Source: an uncultured virus (IMG/VR IMGVR_UViG_2049941000_000719)
Taxonomy: Duplodnaviria > Heunggongvirae > Uroviricota > Caudoviricetes
Length of the DNA stretch: 49,604 nt
Virus record (IMG/VR): IMGVR_UViG_2049941000_000719
Strand: one strand, 5' to 3'
Shown: positions 2,943 to 49,269 of the stretch, piece by piece
Layout of the letters: every line of letters starts with the position of its first letter
Position numbering within the stretch: position 1 is the stretch's first letter
Position numbers and translations under genes: made by a program
Notes under the pieces: generated by a model
What the model was told of the DNA's origin: nothing
Databases searched by the model: none
The model's input: only the letters and a program-made list of their open reading frames with translations

Positions 2943-3890
2943 TCACCATCTGCCAAACCCTGAATCTCCGTCTCCGAAACCCGAAAAGTCCGGGTATCCG
3001 AATTCAGGATATCCGAATTCAGGATATCCGAAGTCAGGTTCTGAGCGCTGTCTTTTCCTGCCCCGCGGTTTTGGAGCGCGGGTCGGCTGTGCCCACGGCG
3101 GAGCACCGTTATCCCAGAACTGAAGTGTGCTTCCTCCCGATGGCGGATACGGTGATCTGCCTCCGCCTGACCGAGATCCCGACTGCGGGTACATGTCCGT
3201 AGTGAGATTTGTTGCAACGTTTTTGAGGATTTGACCGGTTACTGCCGCGGCTTTTTTCGCATACTCCCATTTCTTGGACGGCTGTTGCGGTTGAGGTCTT
3301 GGTTGCGGTCTCGGTTGAGGTCTCGGCGCCGCTCTCATAGGTCTTGATGCCGGGTAGATTCCCCCGCGGCTTTCGGTTTTGGGATACCGCGGTTTGTGTC
3401 TCCCGTCATCGTCGCGATAGTAAGCTCTGCCGGACTCGGCACCGCCTGATCGCTTTCCCCCTCCGTAAGATGCCGGACGGCTCTTCGAGTGTCCCGAAGA
3501 TGATCTCCCCCTCGGCGCCGTTGTGTAACCCGATGACGGATACGGAGTCCTGCCGCGTGATGCCGCACCGCTTCCTCTGTGTTCAGCTCTCGGACGCGGT
3601 TTGTAGTCCTCATAATCGGACTCCTCGAATTCTTCCACGTCATCTTCTTCAGGTTCGTAGAAATATTCTTCATCCACACGTGCCCTGATTTTGTCATTTT
3701 CGGCACGCTGACGTTCAAGCTGATTTAATCTGTGTTCGATACGCTTTCGGCGAATTGCACGTTTTGTGTTTGAAACTGCGATGTCGATGCTTGTAGGGAT
3801 TGATTTGATATCGGAGATAAGATTCTTAATCATCCTCTCCCTACGCTCTTTTCGCCATTGTTTCTGTTTTTCTTTGTGTAACGATGCCAT
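2943..3890 (-). CDS. Low-complexity R/G/S/P-rich protein with PRPQ and PEFGY repeats
   Basis: 315 aa ORF; basic helical N-terminus, acidic patch, disordered RG-rich middle, LQFWDNG module. Confidence 0.8.
   Translation of the reverse strand: MASLHKEKQKQWRKERRERMIKNLISDIKSIPTSIDIAVSNTKRAIRRKRIEHRLNQLERQRAENDKIRARVDEEYFYEPEEDDVEEFEESDYEDYKPRPRAEHRGSGAASRGRTPYPSSGYTTAPRGRSSSGHSKSRPASYGGGKRSGGAESGRAYYRDDDGRHKPRYPKTESRGGIYPASRPMRAAPRPQPRPQPRPQPQQPSKKWEYAKKAAAVTGQILKNVATNLTTDMYPQSGSRSGGGRSPYPPSGGSTLQFWDNGAPPWAQPTRAPKPRGRKRQRSEPDFGYPEFGYPEFGYPDFSGFGDGDSGFGRW
2991..3038. repeat. 15-bp coding tandem repeat (PEFGY x3)
   Basis: ggatatccgaattca-type units, in frame in 2943..3890. Confidence 0.8.
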
Positions 3891-16007: not shown

Positions 16008-16196
16008 TCATGAACCAATCACCTTACCCTTCAGAAAACCGCTTTCCCGTATCTCCTCGACGGGCATGTTAATGTATTCCCATAACTCCTCATTACTCCA
16101 GAATGTAGTCTCAATGTAATGAAGGATGTTGCCGATGACCTCATTTGTGAGTTCAGAGCCTTCCTCGTCCTGAAGACGATACGCAATGATTTTCAT
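16008..16196 (-). CDS. Small acidic hypothetical protein
   Basis: MKIIAYRLQDEEG with AGGAGA RBS, downstream of promoter copy 16257-16276. Confidence 0.65.
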   Translation of the reverse strand: MKIIAYRLQDEEGSELTNEVIGNILHYIETTFWSNEELWEYINMPVEEIRESGFLKGKVIGS

Positions 16197-16256
16197 AATC
16201 TCTCCTTTCGGAGTTTTTTCACTGATTCTGTCTGACATGACAGATATTTTAGACGG

Positions 16257-16276
16257 CATCCTTTTTAAGTAAAACG
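16257..16276 (-). promoter_or_regulatory. Conserved promoter CGTTTTACTTAAAAAGGAT
   Basis: Copies also at 16979-16998, 17227-17246, 17424-17442, 17738-17756, 35034-35052; TATA-like TTAAAAA core. Confidence 0.7.
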
Positions 16277-16325
16277 CAGAGCACAAAATAAAATAAAGAA
16301 TCACAAACTAAAAAACACATAATAG

Positions 16326-16509
16326 GAGATGTCTTCCCATGAAAGGAAAGACACATAGTAATTATAAAACACTCCGTAAAGAGCATCCTATATATCCCCA
16401 TGAAATGGGGAACAGTGTAACCGAACATCATTCGATATGACGTTGAACTAACCAATCAGTTCTGTTCAAAATCCAAATGCCGGTTCATCCCCATGAACAT
16501 GGGGAACAC
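16326..16509 (-). CRISPR. Orphan degenerate type I-E-like mini-array (3 repeats; 65- and 33-nt spacers)
   Basis: Minus strand GTGTTCCCCATGTTCATGGGGATGAACCG (16509-16481), CTGTTCCCCATTTCATGGGGATATATAG (16415-16388), GTGTCTTTCCTTTCATGGGAAGACAT (from 16354); first resembles the E. coli I-E repeat; all keep a hairpin. Confidence 0.7.
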
Positions 16510-16521
16510 AGGAGTATGTGT

Positions 16522-16573
16522 ACAATACATCCTCGCGAGCTTTATTGATGTGACATTATCGGGGATGTATTGT
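16522..16573 (-). ncRNA. Stem-closed RNA unit 0
   Basis: ACAATACATCC/GGATGTATTGT inverted repeat, 24-nt loop, TTAAATAAA upstream; directly precedes the mini-array. Confidence 0.45.
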
Positions 16574-16649
16574 CTGTATAAACATATGACACTCATAGTA
16601 TTTATTTAATTCGCGGCAAAAATAGAAAAATCAGAAAAACTGCCGTCAA

Positions 16650-16698
16650 AAAAAACAGATTCTTTAACCGAGGTTGGTTGTTAAAGAGTCTGCTTTTT
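16650..16698 (-). terminator. Hairpin followed by T-run
   Basis: cagattctttaac / gttaaagagtctg imperfect inverted repeat flanked by A/T runs. Confidence 0.45.
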
Positions 16699-16835
16699 CC
16701 CTTTTTGTAAATCATTAGGGGTTATTCACCCCATGCATGACACATTATGGATGTAGAGTGCGCGGAAACGTGTGTTTCAAGGTACTTTTCGGTTTAGAGT
16801 GTGTATCCAGACGATTAATTCTATATGTGATGAGC

Positions 16836-16960
16836 ATCAATACACGCCCGATTTTGAGTCATAATCATCGAGTTCATTAGAGGATCTATTAGATTTAGAT
16901 GTTTAGGAGGATCTATTAGATTTAGATGTTCTGTCTGTAACTCTCTCGGAGTGTATTGAT
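16836..16960 (-). ncRNA. Stem-closed RNA unit 1
   Basis: ATCAATACAC/GTGTATTGAT 10-bp stem (extendable), promoter 16979-16998; loop has a 24-bp direct repeat. Confidence 0.6.
16880..16930. repeat. 24-bp direct repeat x2
   Basis: gaggatctattagatttagatgtt at 16880-16903 and 16907-16930. Confidence 0.9.
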
Positions 16961-17123
16961 TACACACATATACAACTTCATCCTTTTTAAGTAAAACGAT
17001 AATATCACCTCAAACCGGTAAAATCCATGAGATGCATCCCCCGAATACATGTGATTTTCCAAGAAAATATATGATCGGCGCGGCAGACAAACCCGGCAAA
17101 AATCAACTGCGGGAAAATTGAGA

Positions 17124-17209
17124 AATCAATACAATCAGTAGGTAAAAATCTCGTTTATCGATAGGGAGGTGTTAAACAATGCTTTCATCCAATGGCGATT
17201 GTATTGATT
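17124..17209 (-). ncRNA. Stem-closed RNA unit 2
   Basis: Perfect 13-bp AATCAATACAATC stem, 60-nt loop, promoter 17227-17246. Confidence 0.65.
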
Positions 17210-17299
17210 ACACAGTTATACAACTTCATCCTTTTTAAGTAATACGCTGAAAAACCCCGAAACCACGATATCAAATAAATTATCTTCAGAATGAGATGC

Positions 17300-17405
17300 A
17301 ATCAATACGGCAGATCTATAAATGAACAGCATGTAAAGAATTTGTGACTAAACTAACACAACACCAAGAACGGAAATATCTTGATATTTGACTGCCGTAT
17401 TGATT
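17300..17405 (-). ncRNA. Stem-closed RNA unit 3
   Basis: Perfect 14-bp AATCAATACGGCAG stem, 78-nt loop, promoter 17424-17442. Confidence 0.65.
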
Positions 17406-17466
17406 ACACATCTATATGCGCTGATCCTTTTTAAGTAACACGCAAAATAGGTAACTTTCCGAAAGA

Positions 17467-17542
17467 TAGCGGAGAGCGGATTTGAACCGCTGATACTCCG
17501 GATCATGAGTCCGACGGGTTGACCTAACTACCCCACCCCGCT
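17467..17542 (-). tRNA. tRNA-Met(CAT), archaeal initiator type
   Basis: Cloverleaf: AGCGGGG/CTCCGCT acceptor (A1:U72), GGGT/ACCC D-stem, TCGGA-CTCATGA-TCCGG, AGCGG-TTCAAAT-CCGCT, A73. Confidence 0.9.
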
Positions 17543-17597
17543 TTTTCGTATGAATCCCCCCGATATCCCGTGCACACTACATGCACATATAGGAAGT

Positions 17598-17626
17598 CAG
17601 TTTATCCCCATGTACACGGAATATGC
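17598..17626 (-). repeat. Solitary degenerate I-E-like CRISPR repeat
   Basis: Minus strand ATATTCCGTGTACATGGGGATAAACTG; ends in ATAAACTG handle-like octamer. Confidence 0.5.
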
Positions 17627-17629
17627 GGG

Positions 17630-17719
17630 AATCAATACACCCGATGTAAGAGATTTATCATGAATTTAATCCAGATGACAAGAAACCTATGTAATTGGCG
17701 CAGATCGTGTGTATTGATT
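17630..17719 (-). ncRNA. Stem-closed RNA unit 4
   Basis: 16-bp stem with one mismatch, 58-nt loop, promoter 17738-17756. Confidence 0.65.
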
Positions 17720-17779
17720 ACCCATATATACAACTTTATCCTTTTTAAGTAAAACGGAAAACAGCACCAAATTATAGAT

Positions 17780-17855
17780 ACGCGGAGAGCGGATTTGAAC
17801 CGCTGAATCTCGGATTTTGAGTCCGATGGATTGAACCTGACTTTCCCACTCCGCC
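17780..17855 (-). tRNA. Atypical tRNA, anticodon CAA, paralog of the tRNA-Met
   Basis: Identical T-arm, TCGGA-CTCAAAA-TCCGA anticodon arm, 5-nt variable loop, G1:G72 mismatch, U73. Confidence 0.75.
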
Positions 17856-17981
17856 ATGACAATCTGAATACTACTCCGAATTCCCCAATAACTGTATTTT
17901 CGGATAAATCATCATTGTAGGGATACTGAATTAATTATCGCTAATATGCTAATTAACCGGGTGATGATTATCCGGGTTGCA

Positions 17982-18009
17982 CAGTTTATAGGTGATCTGT
18001 GGGGAATTC
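17982..18009 (-). repeat. Highly degenerate solitary I-E-like repeat
   Basis: Minus strand GAATTCCCCACAGATCACCTATAAACTG; both ends kept, hairpin lost. Confidence 0.35.
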
Positions 18010-18046
18010 AGGGTAATACTAATGAAAATAATCCCATCCTCTTTCA

Positions 18047-18133
18047 ACCAATACAGCAGATTTTGTAATTACTTTTTAGGGGTATATTGTAGGTAAATTC
18101 TAAAAAGCGAAATTAACAACCCGCCGTATTGAT
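18047..18133 (-). ncRNA. Stem-closed RNA unit 5
   Basis: 13-bp stem fully paired only on minus strand (three G-U pairs), 61-nt loop; promoter position is in an N gap followed by AACGC. Confidence 0.6.
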
Positions 18134-18230
18134 CATANNNNNNNNNNAACGCTTGTGTACCTTCGCAGATTGACGATGCCGACGGCAAAATATATCCTTT
18201 ATCGACACTCATCACCTTTTACGGAATAAC

Positions 18231-18512
18231 ATGAACTCACAAACAGAGATATCAGAAAAATCCCCGATAGAGGAGGTGCCGACATACATAAACCTGATAC
18301 GCGGCATCAACCGCCTGAACTTCACGATTACATCCCGGACGGATGCCGCCAAGGACGGAAACGAATTAACCGCCGATGAACTCAGTCAAATTGCACATGA
18401 CATATGCACGCTCTCGGACAAGCTCACCGCGGCACGCAGTCAGGACATTATCTCGATTAATCAAACAATAACTCTCGACNNNNNNNNNNCAGTATTAAAT
18501 AATCTTATTTAA
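18231..18512 (+). CDS. Hypothetical protein (gap at 3' end)
   Basis: First ORF of the plus-strand block. Confidence 0.5.
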   Translation: MNSQTEISEKSPIEEVPTYINLIRGINRLNFTITSRTDAAKDGNELTADELSQIAHDICTLSDKLTAARSQDIISINQTITLDXXXXVLNNLI

Positions 18513-24040: not shown

Positions 24041-24400
24041 ATGTCATTTTGGGCAGTAATTAATAGCGATAACAGGATACGGGGCACGGGATTCAATGCA
24101 TTCAGCGCATTAATCAGCGCAAATACCATCGATACCGACAATTATGATTTACCTGACCTTGACGATATCCCAAAAACGGGGATGATACACACCATCGCCG
24201 AATTAAAAGCAGGACTGGAAGGAACACCTTACAGATTTGAAAGAATTACAAAGGATGAATATTGGGAATTCGAGAATCAGAACGGAGAAAAAACCAATCT
24301 TATTTGCTGTATTGATGAATATCTTAAAGATGAGATGAAAAATAAGAGTGAAAAAGAAAAGAGAATATTTGTAAACGGTATTGTGCGCAGATTTTTCTGA
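24041..24400 (+). CDS. Hypothetical protein
   Basis: 119 aa ORF ending the plus-strand block. Confidence 0.6.
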   Translation: MSFWAVINSDNRIRGTGFNAFSALISANTIDTDNYDLPDLDDIPKTGMIHTIAELKAGLEGTPYRFERITKDEYWEFENQNGEKTNLICCIDEYLKDEMKNKSEKEKRIFVNGIVRRFF

Positions 24401-24821
24401 ACACAATCCCTNNNNNNNNNNNNNNNNNNNNNNNNNNNNNNNNNNNNNNNNNNNNNNNNNNNNNNNNNNNNNNNNNNNNNNNNNNNNNNNNNNNNNNNNN
24501 NNNNNNNNNNNNNNNNNNNNNNNNNNNNNNNNNNNNNNNNNNNNNNNNNNNNNNNNNNNNNNNNNNNNNNNNNNNNNNNNNNNNNNNNNNNNNNNNNNNN
24601 NNNNNNNNNNNNNNNNNNNNNNNNNNNNNNNNNNNNNNNNNNNNNNNNNNNNNNNNNNNNNNNNNNNNNNNNNNNNNNNNNNNNNNNNNNNNNNNNNNNN
24701 NNNNNNNNNNNNNNNNNNNNNNNNNNNNNNNNNNNNNNNNNNNNNNNNNNNNNNNNNNNNNNNNNNNNNNNNNNNNNNNNNNNNNNNNNNNNNNNNNNNN
24801 NNNNNNNNNNNNNNNNNNNNN

Positions 24822-25885
24822 GACAATTTGTTATATCCTGTGCAAATTAATCTATTAAGTCCGAGATTATGAAAATTTTTGATGAAATACCGCGTAAAAT
24901 TAGAACTATAAGGATTATCGCAATTACAATACACCGTCTTATCTTTAAAATACTTTGAATAATGTGATAATTCTTTTACAATATCGTTGTATTGTGTATA
25001 AAACTCATCATCTTTATTTTTTTGCGCGACAATTAAATTTGAATTATTTGCCATATCTCTCACCTAAAAAAGTATGATATATTTATTCAATCAGNNNNNN
25101 NNNNGATTTAAAATCACCATTGCCTAAAAGATATTTGGTATTTACCTCAATAAACTCATTCAATTTTATCTCAGATATATAAAAGACATCGATAGGAACC
25201 AATTTTCTTACTACATCGAGTATATAACCANNNNNNNNNNAATTTACACAAAGGAACAATCTTTCCAGAATCTATATTCAAAGAAGTAATCCATCGTGCA
25301 TTACCAAATTTCTTAAGAGTTTGTTCGGGGGGGGGCGAACAAAAGATATGCTTTTGATATTTGAATAATTACTTATTTTGACCTGTCCAGTTGATATATA
25401 TGGCAACACAACAGGATAACCCAAATGAATTATTAATGTAATAAGTATCAATTCCTTATTATACTTCATTAGTAATTCAAAATAATCAATAAATTTGGAA
25501 AAAGGAGGGTTTGTTACTACTATATCCGATTCTTTCAAATATGAANNNNNNNNNNCACCCAATTTGAGAGATTTGTCTGCACATCCGTGTTCAAATTATT
25601 TACCTGATAATCCTCCCAGTTCATGACACTGTTTTGAGAATTTTGAGAGATGCCATCGGCATTCCCGGCACCGCGACGGCGGATTAATAATCTTGCAAAA
25701 ATATTCTTATTTTTTATACACAAATCCGTTCGTAAAAAATCAATTATTTCAAATAAATCTGGATTATGATAATCAAGATAGGACATAGGAACTCCGATTA
25801 TACCATTATAATCAGGAATTTCACTTAAACGATTTACATTGATTATATCTGGATATCCATCATATGATTGATACTTATTTATGAG
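24822..25885 (-). CDS. EcoRI-family adenine DNA methyltransferase, in four out-of-order blocks with a C9 frameshift
   Basis: KDDEFYTQ..VYCNCDNP..SNF (24822-25054); LLGNGDFKS (25105-25230); DIVVTNPPFS (25241-25545); YDGYPDIINVN..GVPMSYLD..ARLLIRR (about 25670-25885). Confidence 0.8.
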
Positions 25886-25895
25886 NNNNNNNNNN

Positions 25896-26884
25896 TTCAG
25901 AATCGGGGGTTGATTAGGGATTCTTTCAAAGTTTAAGACCCCGAATTCTATGTTTTGTTCTTCAATCACTGCCTGCCCTACGTCATCCAATGACCGCAAA
26001 AGCCGGAGTTGTACCATGGAATTCTTGGGGAGAGACCCCGGAAACCAAATTCGGATTGGTAAACGCTCTTTTACACGGTAATCCAAAAGATTATCGTCAT
26101 GTGTGCTCCCGAAGACCGAAATATTATTTTTACGGAAGTGAATCATCGATTTCGCGAAATTACCCGTCAAATGGAACAATTTACCTGCCGGATAGGAGGG
26201 GGTCACCGTGTGCAGTTCATCCAGAATGATTGTCACATGCCGCCCTTGGGTCTCCTCAAGGAGAGTGTTGCAGAACTCGAACCACCAACTCGGAGGAGGG
26301 GCAAGAACTCCTTCACTCGGAACATCCTTGAGACACTGTAATTCCTGCTGAGCAAGCGTTTTCAGGATGCTTTCGCCCAAGTAGTATTCCGACGGTTCGT
26401 AAACCACATTTATACCCCCGATACGCATATGTTCCATAAGGTCGACAGGGGATTTGTAATGTTTTATCGTTAAATCATGGTTGATTTTTCTTTTTTTACC
26501 GAGAGAGACCTCCGTAAAAGTATAGTCGTCATTTTCATGTACATGAACCATGAGGGGCTTAGACCGCCCGTATTTGGGGAAAGACTTCTTCCAATTTTTG
26601 GGAATAAGGCAATTCCAGTGGTCATCACTCATTCCGCGGAGAATAACGGTCTCCGGGTCGGTATCTATCGATTTGAGAGCGTCCTTATCAAATTTTCGGA
26701 GATCGTGTTTTGAAACTCCGTAGGGGAGAGACCGGGTAAACTGCGCGCACTGCATAAGCAATGTAGATTTGCCGTGACCGAAAGCCCCTATAAGGTCGCA
26801 GAATGTCCCGCCCGTGCCGCAGATACCGTCATCATGTATGAGAAGATTTTCCCACAATTTCTGAGCGTGACGCGGATCAATCAT
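25896..26884 (-). CDS. P-loop ATPase, possibly FtsK/HerA-superfamily packaging or assembly type
   Basis: Walker A GAFGHGKST, Walker B VTIILDE, FRKNNISVFGSTH; C-terminus at gap. Confidence 0.75.
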
Positions 26885-29810: not shown

Positions 29811-30772
29811 TTATATAAGTTTTGCCTGTTGACTCATCGGATTTTCAAAATCCAGAACAGGTTCCTGTACATGCCGTAATTTTGGGGAATACTCTTCAAA
29901 AGGTATTTTCCAATACAACCATCGGCGATTTGCATAATTTGCAAGACGCCGTGTTTGCGGTGTGCTTTTGTATTGCATTACAAAAACATTGGTGTTCAAT
30001 TCCCGCAAAAGGTTCACGCGGTATATATCCTCATCAAAGGTTGAATTAAAGCCTGTCAGAACATAAAATATTACTTTTTTCCGAGTGTTGATGCCGGCAT
30101 TCTTCAGGAGATCCAAGCCTGCCGTAACTTTTGATTCATCCCGGATGTTGTCAAACGCAAAGTGGAGATCTCCCGTCCATCTGAGCTTACCGAGACGTTG
30201 CGCGATCTCCTCATCCAGAATGCGAATATCCATCCCTTGGATGGCATTGAATGCAAGATTATGTTCCAGAACGTAATCCGNNNNNNNNNNTAATCCGTGT
30301 TCTCAAAAAACCATTGTTTGTCGGCATAAACATTGTTGTCCAAAACAATGATCTTTTTGTGTTTTTTATCATGAAACTCGCTGATATGTTGCCATCTGTG
30401 AAAGCGCCCTTCTTTTTTCGGGACAACACAAAACGGACATTTTCGGATGCATCCGCGGGTTGTGTATCCCAAAGAGTAGTCCATTTCGGGATATATGGAA
30501 TAATCCGGGCAAATCTTTTCGTATTCGGGAGGGAGACGTTTATTGATATCTACTCCCGTGCCGCCAAGAGAGACTTGTGCATTCGGATAGAGTGATGCGA
30601 TGCCGCGTGCCTGCTCCGCATTTTTCGTAAATATACAGGACACATACACATAATCGGGATTCTCGACATCAAAACCAACCGTATCGCCCAACAGCTTGTG
30701 ATGTGCGCTTATCTGCATAAGCGCCAAATTCGGGATTTTCGAGTCAATGTTGACAAGCAGAACGCGCGACAT
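29811..30772 (-). CDS. Radical SAM protein (frame split at N gap)
   Basis: TTRGCIRKCPFC CxxxCxxC, LDNN, G.DIR, FAFD, FYVLTGF. Confidence 0.85.
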
Positions 30773-31810: not shown

Positions 31811-32773
31811 GATGCACCTCCGAATGAAAACAGGTTCATATTTAGCCCGACCGCGTATTTCATACGCTCTCGTGATAGCTCGCAATAATCCTCATTGGCA
31901 TCAATACCTATCCAATGCCTGTTAAGTTTTGCCGCCGAAACTGCTGTTGTTCCAGAACCCGAAAAAGGATCTAAAACAATATCCCCTTCATTTGTACCGG
32001 CTAATATGAAGAACTCCGCAAGTGATTCAGGGAAACGCGCGGGGTGAGAGATGCCCCTGTCTCGGCACAATCTGCTGAATGCGTCATTACTCAATGTGTT
32101 TGGTATCGAGAGAACGGAACCGGGGTCTGCACCGCCTTTGTCCGCCCAAGGGTGTGAATAGTCATATGTATGAGAACTCGGATGAATGTTTTTTTTACGT
32201 GTGCCGTGACGTTTCCCGTTTAACAGACGTGACATCCCCCCACAATAGGGTTTTCGGATGGAACCCATATTGAATGTCCATGTATCCCCTTTACTGAACC
32301 AGAAAATAAACTCGTGGGATTTCTTACATCTCCCGTATTTTCCCGTAGAGTATATGTTCGGAGGTGTTGCGGGATTGTGCCAAATATAATCTCTTACGAG
32401 ATTAAAACCTAATTCATGACATAATCTCAGAACTATCTCATAAACATATAATTGAGTTTTACCGTTTACCACACGGTCGTTTATATTCAAGACAAAAGAC
32501 CCTGTGTTTTTCAGAACCCTGTAAAATTCCGCGGCTTTTGGCATGAACCAATCAACATAGCAGTCTGGGGATATTTTTGAGTCAGATATTCCGTAATTTC
32601 TCATATCCGCATACGGAGGAGATGTAAANNNNNNNNNNATCCACACATTCAGCGGGATATCCAGTCAGAACATCTTCGCACTTGCCGTTGATGAAGACAT
32701 TCACCATCTCGGTATTGAACTTGTCGGAAAGCTCTTCGGGAATACCAATCCTGTCTGATAAGATCTCAGTCAT
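31807..32773 (-). CDS. N4-C/N6-A DNA methyltransferase, beta class (split at gap)
   Basis: TSPPY, HPARFP, DPFSGSGTT, GID. Confidence 0.92.
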
Positions 32774-33953
32774 TTTTTACCCCTCGCATTGTCCGAATTA
32801 TCCTGTTTTTGCTGTTCCTGAATAATCTGTAATATTTTTGCGAGGAGTTCAGGATGGATGCTCATTTCGGGATTAATCAGTGTCGGATCCGTGCTTAATC
32901 CGCAATGCGGACAATACTTCTGGTCGGGTGCAACGATGTTGCCGCACCTGATACATTTATGCGGCTTTACCGTATCCATAACACCGTCACGGTCAACGAC
33001 GCCCGCATGATCCAAAACTTCCGAGTCTATATCATTTTCCGAAAGTCTGGTGTATGTCGCCATCATGTGTGTATTGGGATTTCCCCAAGCTATGAGCTTT
33101 ATGATAGATTCATTGTAATTTTCACGCACCATATGTGTTATTCGGGATTTTCGTGACCTTTGCCGCATATCTGGATANNNNNNNNNNGCTTTTTTTGCGA
33201 GTTTCGTAAGAATTTCTATATAGGTTTTATATATGAGAGGGGTTTTTTGTTTTCTGTACAGTGATACAAACACAAAATTATCCCCCGTTGCGGGTGCAAA
33301 TGATTCATATTGATTTCTCCATTCGTTCAGGTATGGTGCCGCGGAAACCAGTCTGCAAAATCTCCTCTTTTTACATTTATGATCGTAAACATAAAGTTTG
33401 GCACCGTATTCGTCGGGGAAAACATCTTTCCATTTCAATGATGCAATCTCGGAAATGCGGCACGCACTTTCATAGAGTGTTGCGATGAATGCTCTGTCAC
33501 GGGAGTTGTTTGCGCACCTGATCATTTCACGGATTTCCGAAGGGGACAGTATTTCGTCCGGGGATGTTGTTTCAAAGTCAATCGGTTGATTTTTAATCAA
33601 TTCGATATCGGCAATATCGCAGTTTATGATTCCCTGTGTGATAAGATATTTCCAGAATGATTTACCTGCCTGTATAAACGCACGAATTGTATTATTTGTA
33701 TATTTGCCTGTTTTGAGATTGGAGATTTTTTGATAGATCTCATTTTTTGTCAGGTCTCGGATACGAACATGCGGTTCGATACTGCATAAGGTGCATATTA
33801 ATGATGTGAGTGTTGATTTACGGCTTTCACCGATATTATTTGTGACTGTCAAATGATTAAGATAATTTCTGATTATCTCTGCATCATCTTCCGTAATATT
33901 GCCGAGTTTCAGGTTTCTGGATAAGCTGACTTCAGGAGTGTATTTGGGATCTT
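32770..33953 (-). CDS. Tyrosine recombinase/integrase with C-terminal Zn ribbon
   Basis: LYESACRISE, RKSRITHM, MMATYTRL, CIRCG..CPHCG; frame extends upstream to the gap (GNITEDDAEIIRNYL). Confidence 0.9.
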
Positions 33954-35033: not shown

Positions 35034-35052
35034 ATCCTTTTTAAGTAAAACG
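35034..35052 (-). promoter_or_regulatory. Copy of the CGTTTTACTTAAAAAGGAT promoter
   Basis: Exact 19-mer upstream of the RHH-recombinase-MTase operon. Confidence 0.7.
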
Positions 35053-37408: not shown

Positions 37409-38289
37409 TTATGTGTTTATTTCAGCAAATATGGTCAATGGTTTCTGTTCGCGCTCTTCCGATTCAAATTTCCTCAATAATTCCGTTGCCGTATATGGCG
37501 GATGGAATTTGAACGGACTGTACTTATCAAGTTCTGCCAAATCCCGCATAAGCTCAGGGGATGTTTTGTAAACATGTCTGAATTGGTCGATGTTTGAATA
37601 CGGGCAAAAAAAACAACCGATTCTGTTAAAATAACTGTGAGAGTATATCGGAGAAAGTATTCCTTCATCTTTACAGATTTTAAAGCATTCTCTCTCCGTT
37701 ATATTCATTTCAACTAACGGTAATTTTTCTCCCCGTTTATACGCTCCTTGGATTCTTTTCACCTCATCTGCGGCAATCCCGACATACCGGATTACATTTT
37801 TATTATTTTTCATCAATTCAAGAGCGTGTTCTTTCATTGCGCTGACCTTCAGGGAATTACATTTTGGGGTTCTGCGTACCGAAAATCCGTAGCATTGTCC
37901 CGCATAATTTCCTTTTTGGAATTTTCTGAAAAATAATTCCTTATATGTCACTGGAGGATTTATCGATTTAAACGGTAAATTCAGTGTCTCCGTAATATAT
38001 GGAATTCCTANNNNNNNNNNTTCATGTTCGGGATATTCCGCGGAATGTTTGGAATCATATCTGATATCAATATAACATACCTCATCAATCGGGTATCCCC
38101 TGTCATAACACATTTTTAACATAGCCATACTGTCCTTACCGAATGAGCAGTTGAGAACGTGGTAGTCGTCAAGAGATGTGTTTCGGAGAACTCGCTTAAA
38201 ATCGTTCTGATTACGTAAACAAGCCTCATAATCTCTCTCTCTCTCTCTCTCTCTTTTATAAAGGCATTATCGGCGCGGAATTCGGTCAT
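37409..38289 (-). CDS. PAPS reductase family (PP-loop) protein, frameshifted at (GA)11
   Basis: HVLNCSFGKDS, CNSLK, YVGIAADE..R, RIGCFFCPY; ATG at 38289 is out of frame by one GA unit. Confidence 0.85.
38232..38254. repeat. (TC)11/(GA)11 microsatellite
   Basis: Direct read; lies 35 nt downstream of ATG 38289. Confidence 0.95.
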
Positions 38290-49020: not shown

Positions 49021-49269
49021 TTAATTTTCTACATTTTCAACAATGCACCCGTTCAGATTCTTACGCATCGGGGTATATTTTACCTCATGCATACGATTCC
49101 AACTGTCCATAAACAGTTTATAGACATAATTTGAACGTGTGCGCATCTCCTGTTCAGCCCTTATGTCAATCTCGGATACGATATCGACGGGTAATCTGAC
49201 ACTGACCAAAAGGGTCTTGGTTTGGGGTTGTTCATAACCCCGCGGTTTTACAGTTGTTTTTTCGATCAA
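49021..49269 (-). CDS. Ribbon-helix-helix (CopG-like) regulator
   Basis: LVSVRLPVDIVSEIDIRAEQEMRTRSNYV. Confidence 0.75.
   Translation of the reverse strand: MIEKTTVKPRGYEQPQTKTLLVSVRLPVDIVSEIDIRAEQEMRTRSNYVYKLFMDSWNRMHEVKYTPMRKNLNGCIVENVEN

Follow-up and report, generated by a model that had tools for sequence, protein, structure and literature searches.

There are two tRNA genes in the 49,604-nucleotide stretch of uncultured-virus DNA analysed here (the window), and one of them joins the anticodon CAA to a body that is paralogous to its neighbour, an initiator-like tRNA with the anticodon CAU. This gene has a tRNA structure and persists with its anticodon in field assemblies. Judged by its sequence, it arose through a duplication and an anticodon shift on an archaeal mobile element, and it is either a tRNA that is changing its job or a spare copy that is starting to decay. 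The reading that we favour, tentatively, is that it is a still-working, alloacceptor-remoulded duplicate of the element's initiator-type tRNA that has an orphan identity.

Under this reading, the ancestral CAU gene would have been copied within a repeat array. The copy would then have gained U36 to A and G37 to A changes, which would let it pair with UUG. Its acceptor end would subsequently have been rebuilt, with A1:U72 becoming G1·G72 and A73 becoming U73, while the L-shape was kept. We infer that such a copy would still be transcribed, processed, charged and used on the ribosome as a tRNA.

Duplication with an anticodon shift is thought to be a route by which tRNAs change identity, and clear natural intermediates are rare outside mitochondria. 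At keyword level, the open-access literature yielded no precedent for a remoulded tRNA in archaea, their mobile elements or viruses. The adjacent parent and copy form a dated pair, in which field haplotypes show the succession G:C, G·U, A:U, and the CAA anticodon and the body point to different amino acids. If the tRNA is charged, it would show a mobile element tampering with the way methanogens decode codons or choose start codons, and if uncharged, it would be a well-documented case of early tRNA gene decay.

The tRNA(CAA) gene and the element that carries it

In the 49.6 kb of the window, ARAGORN predicts two tRNAs and no others, each encoded on the minus strand:

17780..17855, minus strand: tRNA-shaped gene with the anticodon CAA, class I (ARAGORN; Rfam RF00005, 53.6 bits; also present in L001 at 2992-3067 and in X5 and X9 contigs)
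17467..17542, minus strand: initiator-like tRNA(CAU), the parent paralog (ARAGORN; RF00005; identity to Methanomicrobiales initiators)

Here, L001 denotes a contig from a 75-kb metagenome record, X5 and X9 denote DNA runs of two additional studies of the cattle gut, and X15 and X16 denote RNA libraries.

The CAA gene is 76 nt long and lies 313 bp from the CAU gene. Against RF00005, which has a gathering score of 29, the CAU gene scores 57.3 bits (E 7.5e-10) and the CAA gene 53.6 bits (E 7.7e-9). The match to the CAA gene is full-length (1-71 of 71), and 1:72 is the only non-standard pair in the Rfam alignment. Read directly, the gene is GGCGGAG/UG/GGAA/D loop of 11/AUCC/A/UCGGA/CUCAAAA/UCCGA/GAUUC/AGCGG/UUCAAAU/CCGCU/CUCCGCG/U, with G1·G72, U73, A37, the variable loop GAUUC (5 nt) and the anticodon loop CUCAAAA. 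CCA is not encoded. The sequence, ARAGORN and Rfam bear out the initial annotation, which had described the anticodon CAA, a 5-nt variable loop, G1:G72 and U73. The window copy also has an unpaired A13·A22, which was absent from that annotation.

The CAA gene retains U8, A14, G15, G18G19, C48 and the T loop UUCAAAU; of its 21 stem pairs, the window copy forms 19 and the L001 copy 20. An RF00005 score above 29 bits, together with a cloverleaf that has the T loop and G18G19, places it among tRNAs. With 53.6 bits and 19/21 pairs, it has neither the degraded structure nor the low model score of a pseudogene. Minimum free energy (MFE) folding alone returns no cloverleaf for the CAA copy, but when evaluated directly the cloverleaf is nearly as stable, at -22.6 kcal/mol versus an MFE of -24.2, and this gap of 1.6 is as in the parent. 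Values of -22.6 and -23.5 kcal/mol for the CAA cloverleaf compare with -25.3 kcal/mol for the parent, each lying at most 1.8 kcal/mol from its own MFE.

The element encodes an archaeal A24 prepilin/preflagellin peptidase, a DUF6293/HFX_2341 winged-helix protein and methyltransferases, and the rest are ORFans. Its tyrosine integrase has its closest counterparts in archaeal pleomorphic viruses and haloarchaeal viruses. Searches of 99 ORFs against Pfam and PHROGs revealed no capsid, portal or terminase, and also no aminoacyl-tRNA synthetase (aaRS) and no evident tRNA enzyme, while the neighbouring proteins have no relatives in IMG/VR. By its gene content, this is an archaeal mobile element, either a virus or a plasmid. 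The FlaK-like (A24) peptidase is 29-35% identical to its nearest genomic homologues, and Methanomicrobiales taxa appear in the titles of 75 of the best 80. Other homologues of the peptidase, at 53-56% identity, imply that the element has more distant relatives. Because the titles of the genomic homologues name that order, the likely host is a gut member of the Methanomicrobiales, assigned at order level only.

On the minus strand at 24203-26884, three successive ORFs match an EcoRI-type adenine methylase profile over 2-74, 134-208 and 242-304, and this gene appears to be split or broken by masked stretches (N at 24412-24821). A radical-SAM-like protein (phrog_9298) is encoded at 30104-30772 and a PAPS-reductase/PP-loop-like protein (phrog_424) at 37409-38128, both on the minus strand and both lacking a Pfam match. 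The phrog_9298 and phrog_424 proteins could be part of a nucleic-acid modification pathway.

The initiator-like parent and its relatives

The CAU gene has A1:U72, A73, G29:C41, G30:C40, A31:U39, G37, U27·G43 and a 6-nt variable loop. It is 76-80% identical to initiators in 191 of the 251 Methanomicrobiales genomes searched. Ten Methanomicrobiales initiator genes read AGCGAGGUGGGGUAGUCAGGAGAUCCCGUCGGGCUCAUAACCCGAAGA.CAAUGGUUCAAAUCCAUUCCUCGCUA, all with A1:U72 and A73, and the CAU gene shares these two features and the D arm with them. It departs from the host initiators in having A31:U39 for G31:C39, G37 for A37, U27·G43 and the 6-nt variable loop. The claim that the CAA gene is a paralog of an adjacent initiator-type tRNA is upheld by these features and by the 81% identity of the two genes. 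The word 'initiator' needs to be softened, because A31:U39, G37 and the 6-nt variable loop make the parent initiator-like, yet by sequence not a canonical initiator.

The same anticodon arm, CGGACUCAUGAUCCGG on an A1:U72 body, is also found in two archaeal tailed-virus contigs from IMG/VR (L146 and L147), and one of these tRNAs recurs in a Methanomicrobiales genome bin (L098):

L146 2882-2956, minus strand: CAU tRNA with the same anticodon arm, in an archaeal tailed-virus contig
L147 2806-2889, minus strand: 84-nt CAU tRNA with a 14-nt variable arm, in an archaeal tailed-virus contig
L098 11707-11790, minus strand: 84-nt CAU tRNA, in a Methanomicrobiales genome bin

The viral CAU tRNAs in the two contigs sit between a Mu-F-like head gene and a capsid gene, beside a portal gene. 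Comparison of the proteins of these two viruses with those of the element gave no convincing similarity, the one weak match being 28% over 81 residues. The L147 tRNA recurs at 97% identity in the bin contig with different flanks. This 84-nt tRNA has A73 and a class II-like 14-nt variable arm (GUGCGAAAGCUUC). The length and ending of that arm resemble those of host tRNA-Leu arms, so that an initiator body and CAU are found together with Leu-style identity marks. A normal initiator, class II Leu genes and an elongator Met with an intron are present in that bin as well.

The shared arm in viral contigs and the normal initiator in the L098 bin indicate, at the level of sequence, a virus-borne initiator-like tRNA type (CAU, G37, A31:U39) of which the CAA gene is a derivative. 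That this type is common to unrelated archaeal viruses fits the idea of viral tRNAs shaped by host tRNA-directed defences. It looks like a virus-specific initiator-type lineage, possibly one that host tRNA nucleases have shaped. It is quite unlikely, in our judgement, that archaeal viruses and elements of methanogens carry their own initiator-type lineage and rewire it across the Met/Leu boundary, with CAA placed on the initiator body in the window and a Leu-like arm gained by the CAU body in L147 and L098. If such rewired tRNAs were charged and used, the start codon (UUG) or the amino acid would be altered at initiation or at UUG/AUG in infected cells, and this would amount to virus-driven recoding in archaea.

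The 13-mer GGACTCATGATCC occurs in 13 of the 251 Methanomicrobiales genomes; the match in G163 is a tRNA already found by the Methanomicrobiales genome search, and the 11 other loci examined hold no tRNA. A DNA search of a phage collection matched only a Streptomyces-phage tRNA-Met, at 77%. The 23-24-mer of the T-arm and acceptor that is shared by the two genes has no match in IMG/VR and none in 185,579 species genomes. The possibility that the tRNAs represent an attP copy of a host tRNA is unsupported, as this 23-24-mer has no host source and the integrase is 15 kb away.

Two other features of the parent and its surroundings can be recorded. Its anticodon loop holds the palindrome UCAUGA. In addition, the 82 ORFs of at least 80 codons use ATA as often as ATT and ATC, at 25.5 per 1000 codons. 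Because ATA is frequent and a CAU tRNA with a modified C34 could read AUA, the parent's 'Met' label is uncertain.

Divergence, field haplotypes and the repeat array

The CAA and CAU bodies differ at 16 positions. The 3' 25 nt are shared exactly, comprising the two bases before the T stem and then all positions from the first T-stem base to acceptor position 71. The two genes also agree in the 5' strand of their anticodon stem, so the sharing of the T-arm and this strand noted in the initial annotation holds. If the 16 differences were uniformly placed, the probability that none would fall in these 25 nt is about 0.002 by our own calculation, (51/76)^16. Outside the genes, CAA and CAU flanks (160 nt upstream and the 25-nt trailer) have an identity of 0.53-0.54 versus 0.47-0.50 for shuffled sequence. 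An 81% body between randomised flanks would indicate either an old copy with a constrained body or that the body alone was copied.

The differences lie at acceptor positions 1 and 6 and at the acceptor end (72, 73); at positions 12, 13 and 23 of the D arm, with two D-loop changes; at positions 26, 36, 37 and 43 of the core and anticodon arm; and at positions 44 and 45 of the variable region, with one variable-loop base deleted. With host-order initiators and the viral L146 and L147 genes as outgroups, nearly all changes fall on the CAA lineage. Pair 12:23 is compensatory, passing from G:C in CAU through G·U in L001 to A:U in the window. Pairs 6:67 and 27:43 have gone from G·U in CAU to A:U in CAA, and the 26·44 pair is switched from G·A to A·G. 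All of these preserve or strengthen the fold.

Simulations placed the same number of substitutions randomly, leaving out the D and variable loops. The 9-11 substitutions outside these loops break one pair in L001 or two in the window, whereas the random expectation is 3.7-5.6, and the simulated P for so few broken pairs is 0.01-0.10, depending on the copy and the transition bias. The closest relative of the CAA gene belongs to another acceptor family in the same genome, as is characteristic of alloacceptor remoulding, namely the adjacent CAU gene at 81%. When its body was compared by eye with host Leu genes, no similarity was seen.

These patterns bear on a serious alternative, which we hold to be slightly less likely than a working tRNA. 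The gene might be a neutral spare copy that is becoming a pseudogene, for which repeat recombination duplicated the tRNA, U36A lost the Met identity and drift followed. The cloverleaf would then be largely intact because little time has passed. Randomised flanks around a body that is still 81% identical speak against drift, as do the few pairs broken for the number of substitutions, the unchanged T arm and 3' acceptor strand, the compensatory change at 12:23, the coordinated change at 26·44 and an Rfam score near that of the parent. We count the tRNA fold, the contrast of body and flanks, the few broken pairs, the compensatory changes and the unchanged 3' 25 nt in favour of a working tRNA, as we do the parent lineage being a virus-borne tRNA type.

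The related contig L001 carries both tRNA genes and is 97% identical to the window by substitutions in the region; it is the one relative among the matches listed in a metagenome scan. The 1.7-kb locus is found in at least 20 sequencing runs from 13 studies (bovine gut, gut, manure), among the matches listed. The X5 DNA contig is identical to the window across both tRNA genes, a comparison of contigs only. Four independent assemblies (window, L001, X5 and X9) agree in CAA, G1·G72 and U73, and this recurrence excludes a consensus or assembly error, the artefact that the initial annotation had named as a risk. In the X9 DNA contig, 530 nt from 17179 to 17710 are deleted, with 21 other letters instead. 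The deletion covers one plain array unit and the whole CAU tRNA unit, so that the CAU unit is gone and the CAA gene is kept. The X9 CAA gene has C40 changed to A, giving G30·A40, and position 74 is altered too. In both X5 and X9 some repeat copies are joined differently, and together with the X9 deletion these alternative junctions indicate that the array recombines.

Retention of CAA in four assemblies, in X9 even after loss of CAU, counts for a working tRNA and against drift. Drift is favoured by the recombination-prone array (the 530-nt deletion and the X5/X9 junctions), by the apparent dispensability of both tRNAs, given that X9 lacks CAU, and by the mismatches G·G at 1:72, A13·A22 (window) and G30·A40 (X9). 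Between the window and L001, substitutions amount to 3.0% in the gene-free array. The CAU gene shows 0/76 (P = 0.097) and the CAA gene 3/76, for which the probability of three or fewer differences is 0.80 against this background. This neutral-rate test involves two haplotypes and has low power. Thus CAA haplotype divergence is at the background and not below it, which counts for drift and against a working tRNA. The stem variants that segregate among haplotypes (n=3) mostly count the same way, because two of them, A13·A22 and G30·A40, destroy pairs whereas 12:23 keeps pairing.

Present-day constraint on the CAA gene looks weak, at low power, while the long-term pattern, as read from sequence comparison, points to non-random change, opposite to the haplotype signal. 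Of the earlier statement that the stems are intact with compensatory changes, the 12:23 change is real and pairing is maintained above random, but pairing is lost at 1:72 and 13:22, and G30·A40 is found in a field variant. As for the corollary that the structure argues against simple decay, the CAA haplotypes diverge at the background rate, and decay stays a live reading. The proposed search of relatives for conservation had a divided outcome, as L001, X5 and X9 keep CAA, a conservation that rests on near-identical haplotypes, and IMG/VR holds no match to the 23-24-mer.

Both tRNAs are located in a repeat array that has the following components:

16237..18165, no strand assigned: array of repeat units without a convincing gene, two of which carry tRNAs, between divergently oriented gene blocks
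17707..17774, no strand assigned: 68-nt repeat unit (GTATTGATTAC...ATCCTTTTTAAGTAAAACG) immediately 3' of the CAA gene (repeat family D1/D2)
17393..17460, no strand assigned: another copy of this 68-nt unit, located 3' of the CAU gene (repeat family D1/D2)
17856..18096, minus strand: putative 5' leader of the CAA transcript (X15 RNA contig, 220 nt, 17877-18096)

Repeat copies start at 16237, 16949, 17197, 17393, 17707 and about 18120, with one more at 35034. The copy upstream of the CAA leader is partly masked (about 18120-18165). Array units, which all begin with a copy of the 68-nt repeat, measure 196-722 bp start-to-start, and the four full 68-nt copies are spaced at 196-314 bp. The exact repeat 15-mer occurs 6 times versus 0.26 expected. 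The 68-nt repeat has T-runs and a TATA-like core, and an inverted partner, AATCAATAC, is located 58-78 nt from each copy. The starts of two divergent ORFs, both MNSQ, are spanned by an inverted repeat (16124-16155 / 18232-18263), and the array lies between paralogous genes in a head-to-head arrangement.

Contigs from the RNA libraries (X15, X16) cover 16693-16932 (two studies) and 17877-18096 (one study), and both lie just downstream, in the minus-strand sense, of a 68-nt repeat copy. They are assembled contigs for which the strand is indistinguishable and DNA carry-over is possible, and the 17877 end of the X15 contig is a site that differs between haplotypes. None of the X15 and X16 contigs lies over either tRNA, which says nothing about tRNA expression. 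Given the position of the RNA contigs, the 68-nt repeat is probably a terminator of the CAA unit, a minus-strand promoter of the CAU unit, or both. Contigs that abut repeat copies, combined with the 15-mer excess, weakly suggest that the repeat holds a minus-strand promoter and that CAA is made with a leader of about 240 nt. The array may be a promoter/operator family driving small non-coding RNAs. No other credible Rfam family was found across the array (the best non-tRNA match has 26.6 bits versus a gathering score of 66), no tRNA remnants were detected in other array units at a permissive Rfam threshold, and a repeat-motif pattern had 0 matches in IMG/VR. That the X15 contig abuts the 5' side of the CAA gene counts weakly for a working tRNA, and a tRNA without an RNA contig counts against it.

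Amino-acid identity, decoding and known systems

In Haloferax volcanii, leucine identity is conferred by A73 and a long variable arm that is read sequence-specifically, a mode that has been called unique to Archaea (PMC9976931). All five host-order tRNA-Leu genes examined are class II with A73, G37 and arms of 13-14 nt; those with CAA are 83-84 nt long, and both CAA isoacceptors have the loop CUCAAGA. The CAA gene has a Leu anticodon, as CAA reads UUG, together with a 5-nt variable loop in place of the long arm and, in four assemblies, U73 in place of A73. With U73, the 5-nt loop and A37, it is therefore not a tRNA-Leu by archaeal rules.

Bacterial and eukaryal MetRS read C34, A35 and U36, and the part of the review concerned lists no archaeal data (PMC9976931). 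Of these bases, U36 is lost in the CAA copy. The gene also departs from archaeal initiators, having G1·G72 and U73 rather than A1:U72 and A73, an anticodon other than CAU, and A31:U39 rather than the last of three G:C pairs at 29-31:39-41, where host initiators have GGG/CCC. Both halves of the earlier claim on identity are sustained, namely that Leu does not fit because of U73 and a 5-nt loop instead of A73 and a long arm (PMC9976931), and that Met does not fit because the copy lacks CAU. Archaeal U73 is known from Cys with GCA and from H. volcanii Thr with G1-C72 and C2-G71 (PMC9976931). Neither a Cys nor a Thr identity via U73 fits the CAA gene.

Because the gene is no normal tRNA-Leu by archaeal rules and the Met/initiator marks are lost, a working tRNA would have an orphan identity. 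Descent from an initiator and the unpaired 1:72 argue for a P-site (start-codon) or low-level UUG recoding role and not for bulk elongation. On these sequence features, a working copy would more probably behave like an initiator, or recode at a low level, than serve in bulk elongation. The lack of any fitting aaRS identity counts against a working tRNA, and it favours drift.

Codon and start-codon counts do not indicate a special demand for this tRNA. UUG makes up 19% of Leu codons, or 14.7 per 1000 (82 ORFs), and is unremarkable. By a longest-ORF rule, TTG is the start in 18 of 82 ORFs, most of which have ATG or GTG a few codons on. Shine-Dalgarno matches of at least 5 nt showed no enrichment at TTG starts (2/59), compared with GTG (2/52) and ATG (25/133). 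Leaderless mRNAs are common in archaea. A small number of TTG starts look genuine, above all those of the integrase (32770-33852) and of ORF 49021-49269, and a share of this size is not known to be unusual. The integrase must start at or very near TTG, as its first ATG or GTG comes no earlier than codon 109 whereas its homology starts at residue 5-23. The suggestion in the initial annotation of a UUG-start initiator gains nothing from these counts, since TTG starts resemble GTG starts. The two other readings offered there, a mistranslating tRNA and a decoy, are conjectural. That UUG is an ordinary codon and that TTG starts are like GTG in Shine-Dalgarno counts against a working tRNA, and the lack of excess in either is in keeping with drift.

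A very unlikely alternative is an ordinary codon-supplementing tRNA-Leu, which the host LeuRS would charge despite the short loop and U73, as happens in Streptomyces. In leucylating a type I tRNA-Leu(CAA), the LeuRS of Streptomyces coelicolor makes no use of A73 (PMC6614811). There are also 10 contigs in IMG/VR (L112-L121) with a class-I-length tRNA(CAA), arm GGACUCAAAAUCC, located in tRNA clusters and having the identical loop CUCAAAA. Five of the ten were read by eye and have clean acceptor stems and A73. These tRNAs are bacterial-style, with bodies unrelated to the CAA gene. Several of the contigs also have class-I-length tRNAs (77-78 nt) with UAA and UAG, and 'tRNA-Leu' genes with short arms seem not uncommon among phages. 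The precedents are thus bacterial or from phages, whereas the archaeal mode is a long arm with A73 (PMC9976931). The host-order genes follow that mode and carry G37 (5/5). Moreover, a 1:72 mismatch disfavours elongation-factor binding, as is established for bacterial initiators, and UUG is not over-used.

It is unlikely, though less so, that the gene produces an uncharged tRNA-shaped RNA, either a decoy for a nuclease or tRNA-binding factor or an RNase P/Z processing and stability module for the upstream RNA of about 240 nt. The lack of a fitting aaRS identity accords with such a product, and the parent's G37 and A31:U39 are the type of change proposed to shield phage tRNAs from anticodon nucleases (PMC10264068). 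The acceptor/T-arm half is the part without changes. RNase P reads this half of a tRNA. In addition, the leader and not the tRNA is found in an RNA library, which is weakly in favour. However, a decoy for a host tRNA-Leu(CAA) nuclease should resemble its target, and the host gene is class II with the loop CUCAAGA. No nuclease or defence context was identified in connection with a decoy, and we know of no archaeal nuclease for this case. As for a processing module, the surroundings of the cleavage site (1, 72, 73) are exactly where the copy changed, and the other array units are without a tRNA according to Rfam.

The remoulded working tRNA that we tentatively prefer can be compared with four known systems. 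Alloacceptor tRNA remolding and anticodon shifts have been described in metazoan mitochondria and eukaryotic nuclear genomes (PMC4783518, PMC3923123). As in those cases, a tRNA was duplicated, the anticodon mutated and the copy resembles another acceptor family, and in haplotype X9 the ancestral gene has also been lost. Unlike known remolding, this case concerns an archaeal mobile element and an initiator-type parent, both genes are present in most haplotypes, and the new identity is putative. The likeness to the Streptomyces type I tRNA-Leu(CAA) (PMC6614811) and to the L112-L121 genes is CAA on a class I body with the loop CUCAAAA. Those tRNAs are bacterial or from phages, however, with unrelated bodies and, where the acceptor was read, A73 and a paired 1:72, and the archaeal LeuRS mode differs from theirs.

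With archaeal initiator tRNA-Met the gene shares descent, the parent's AGCGxGGUGGGGUAG acceptor/D arm, the retained G29:C41 and G30:C40, and a top pair that is weak or unpaired, whereas the copy lacks CAU, A1:U72, A73 and G31:C39. Finally, anticodon-loop changes in phage tRNAs have been proposed to evade host anticodon nucleases (PMC10264068). The CAA gene is similarly element-borne, with an arm that departs from that of the host (G37 and A31:U39 in the parent; A36 and A37 in the copy), but in that model the anticodon is kept, and here it is changed.
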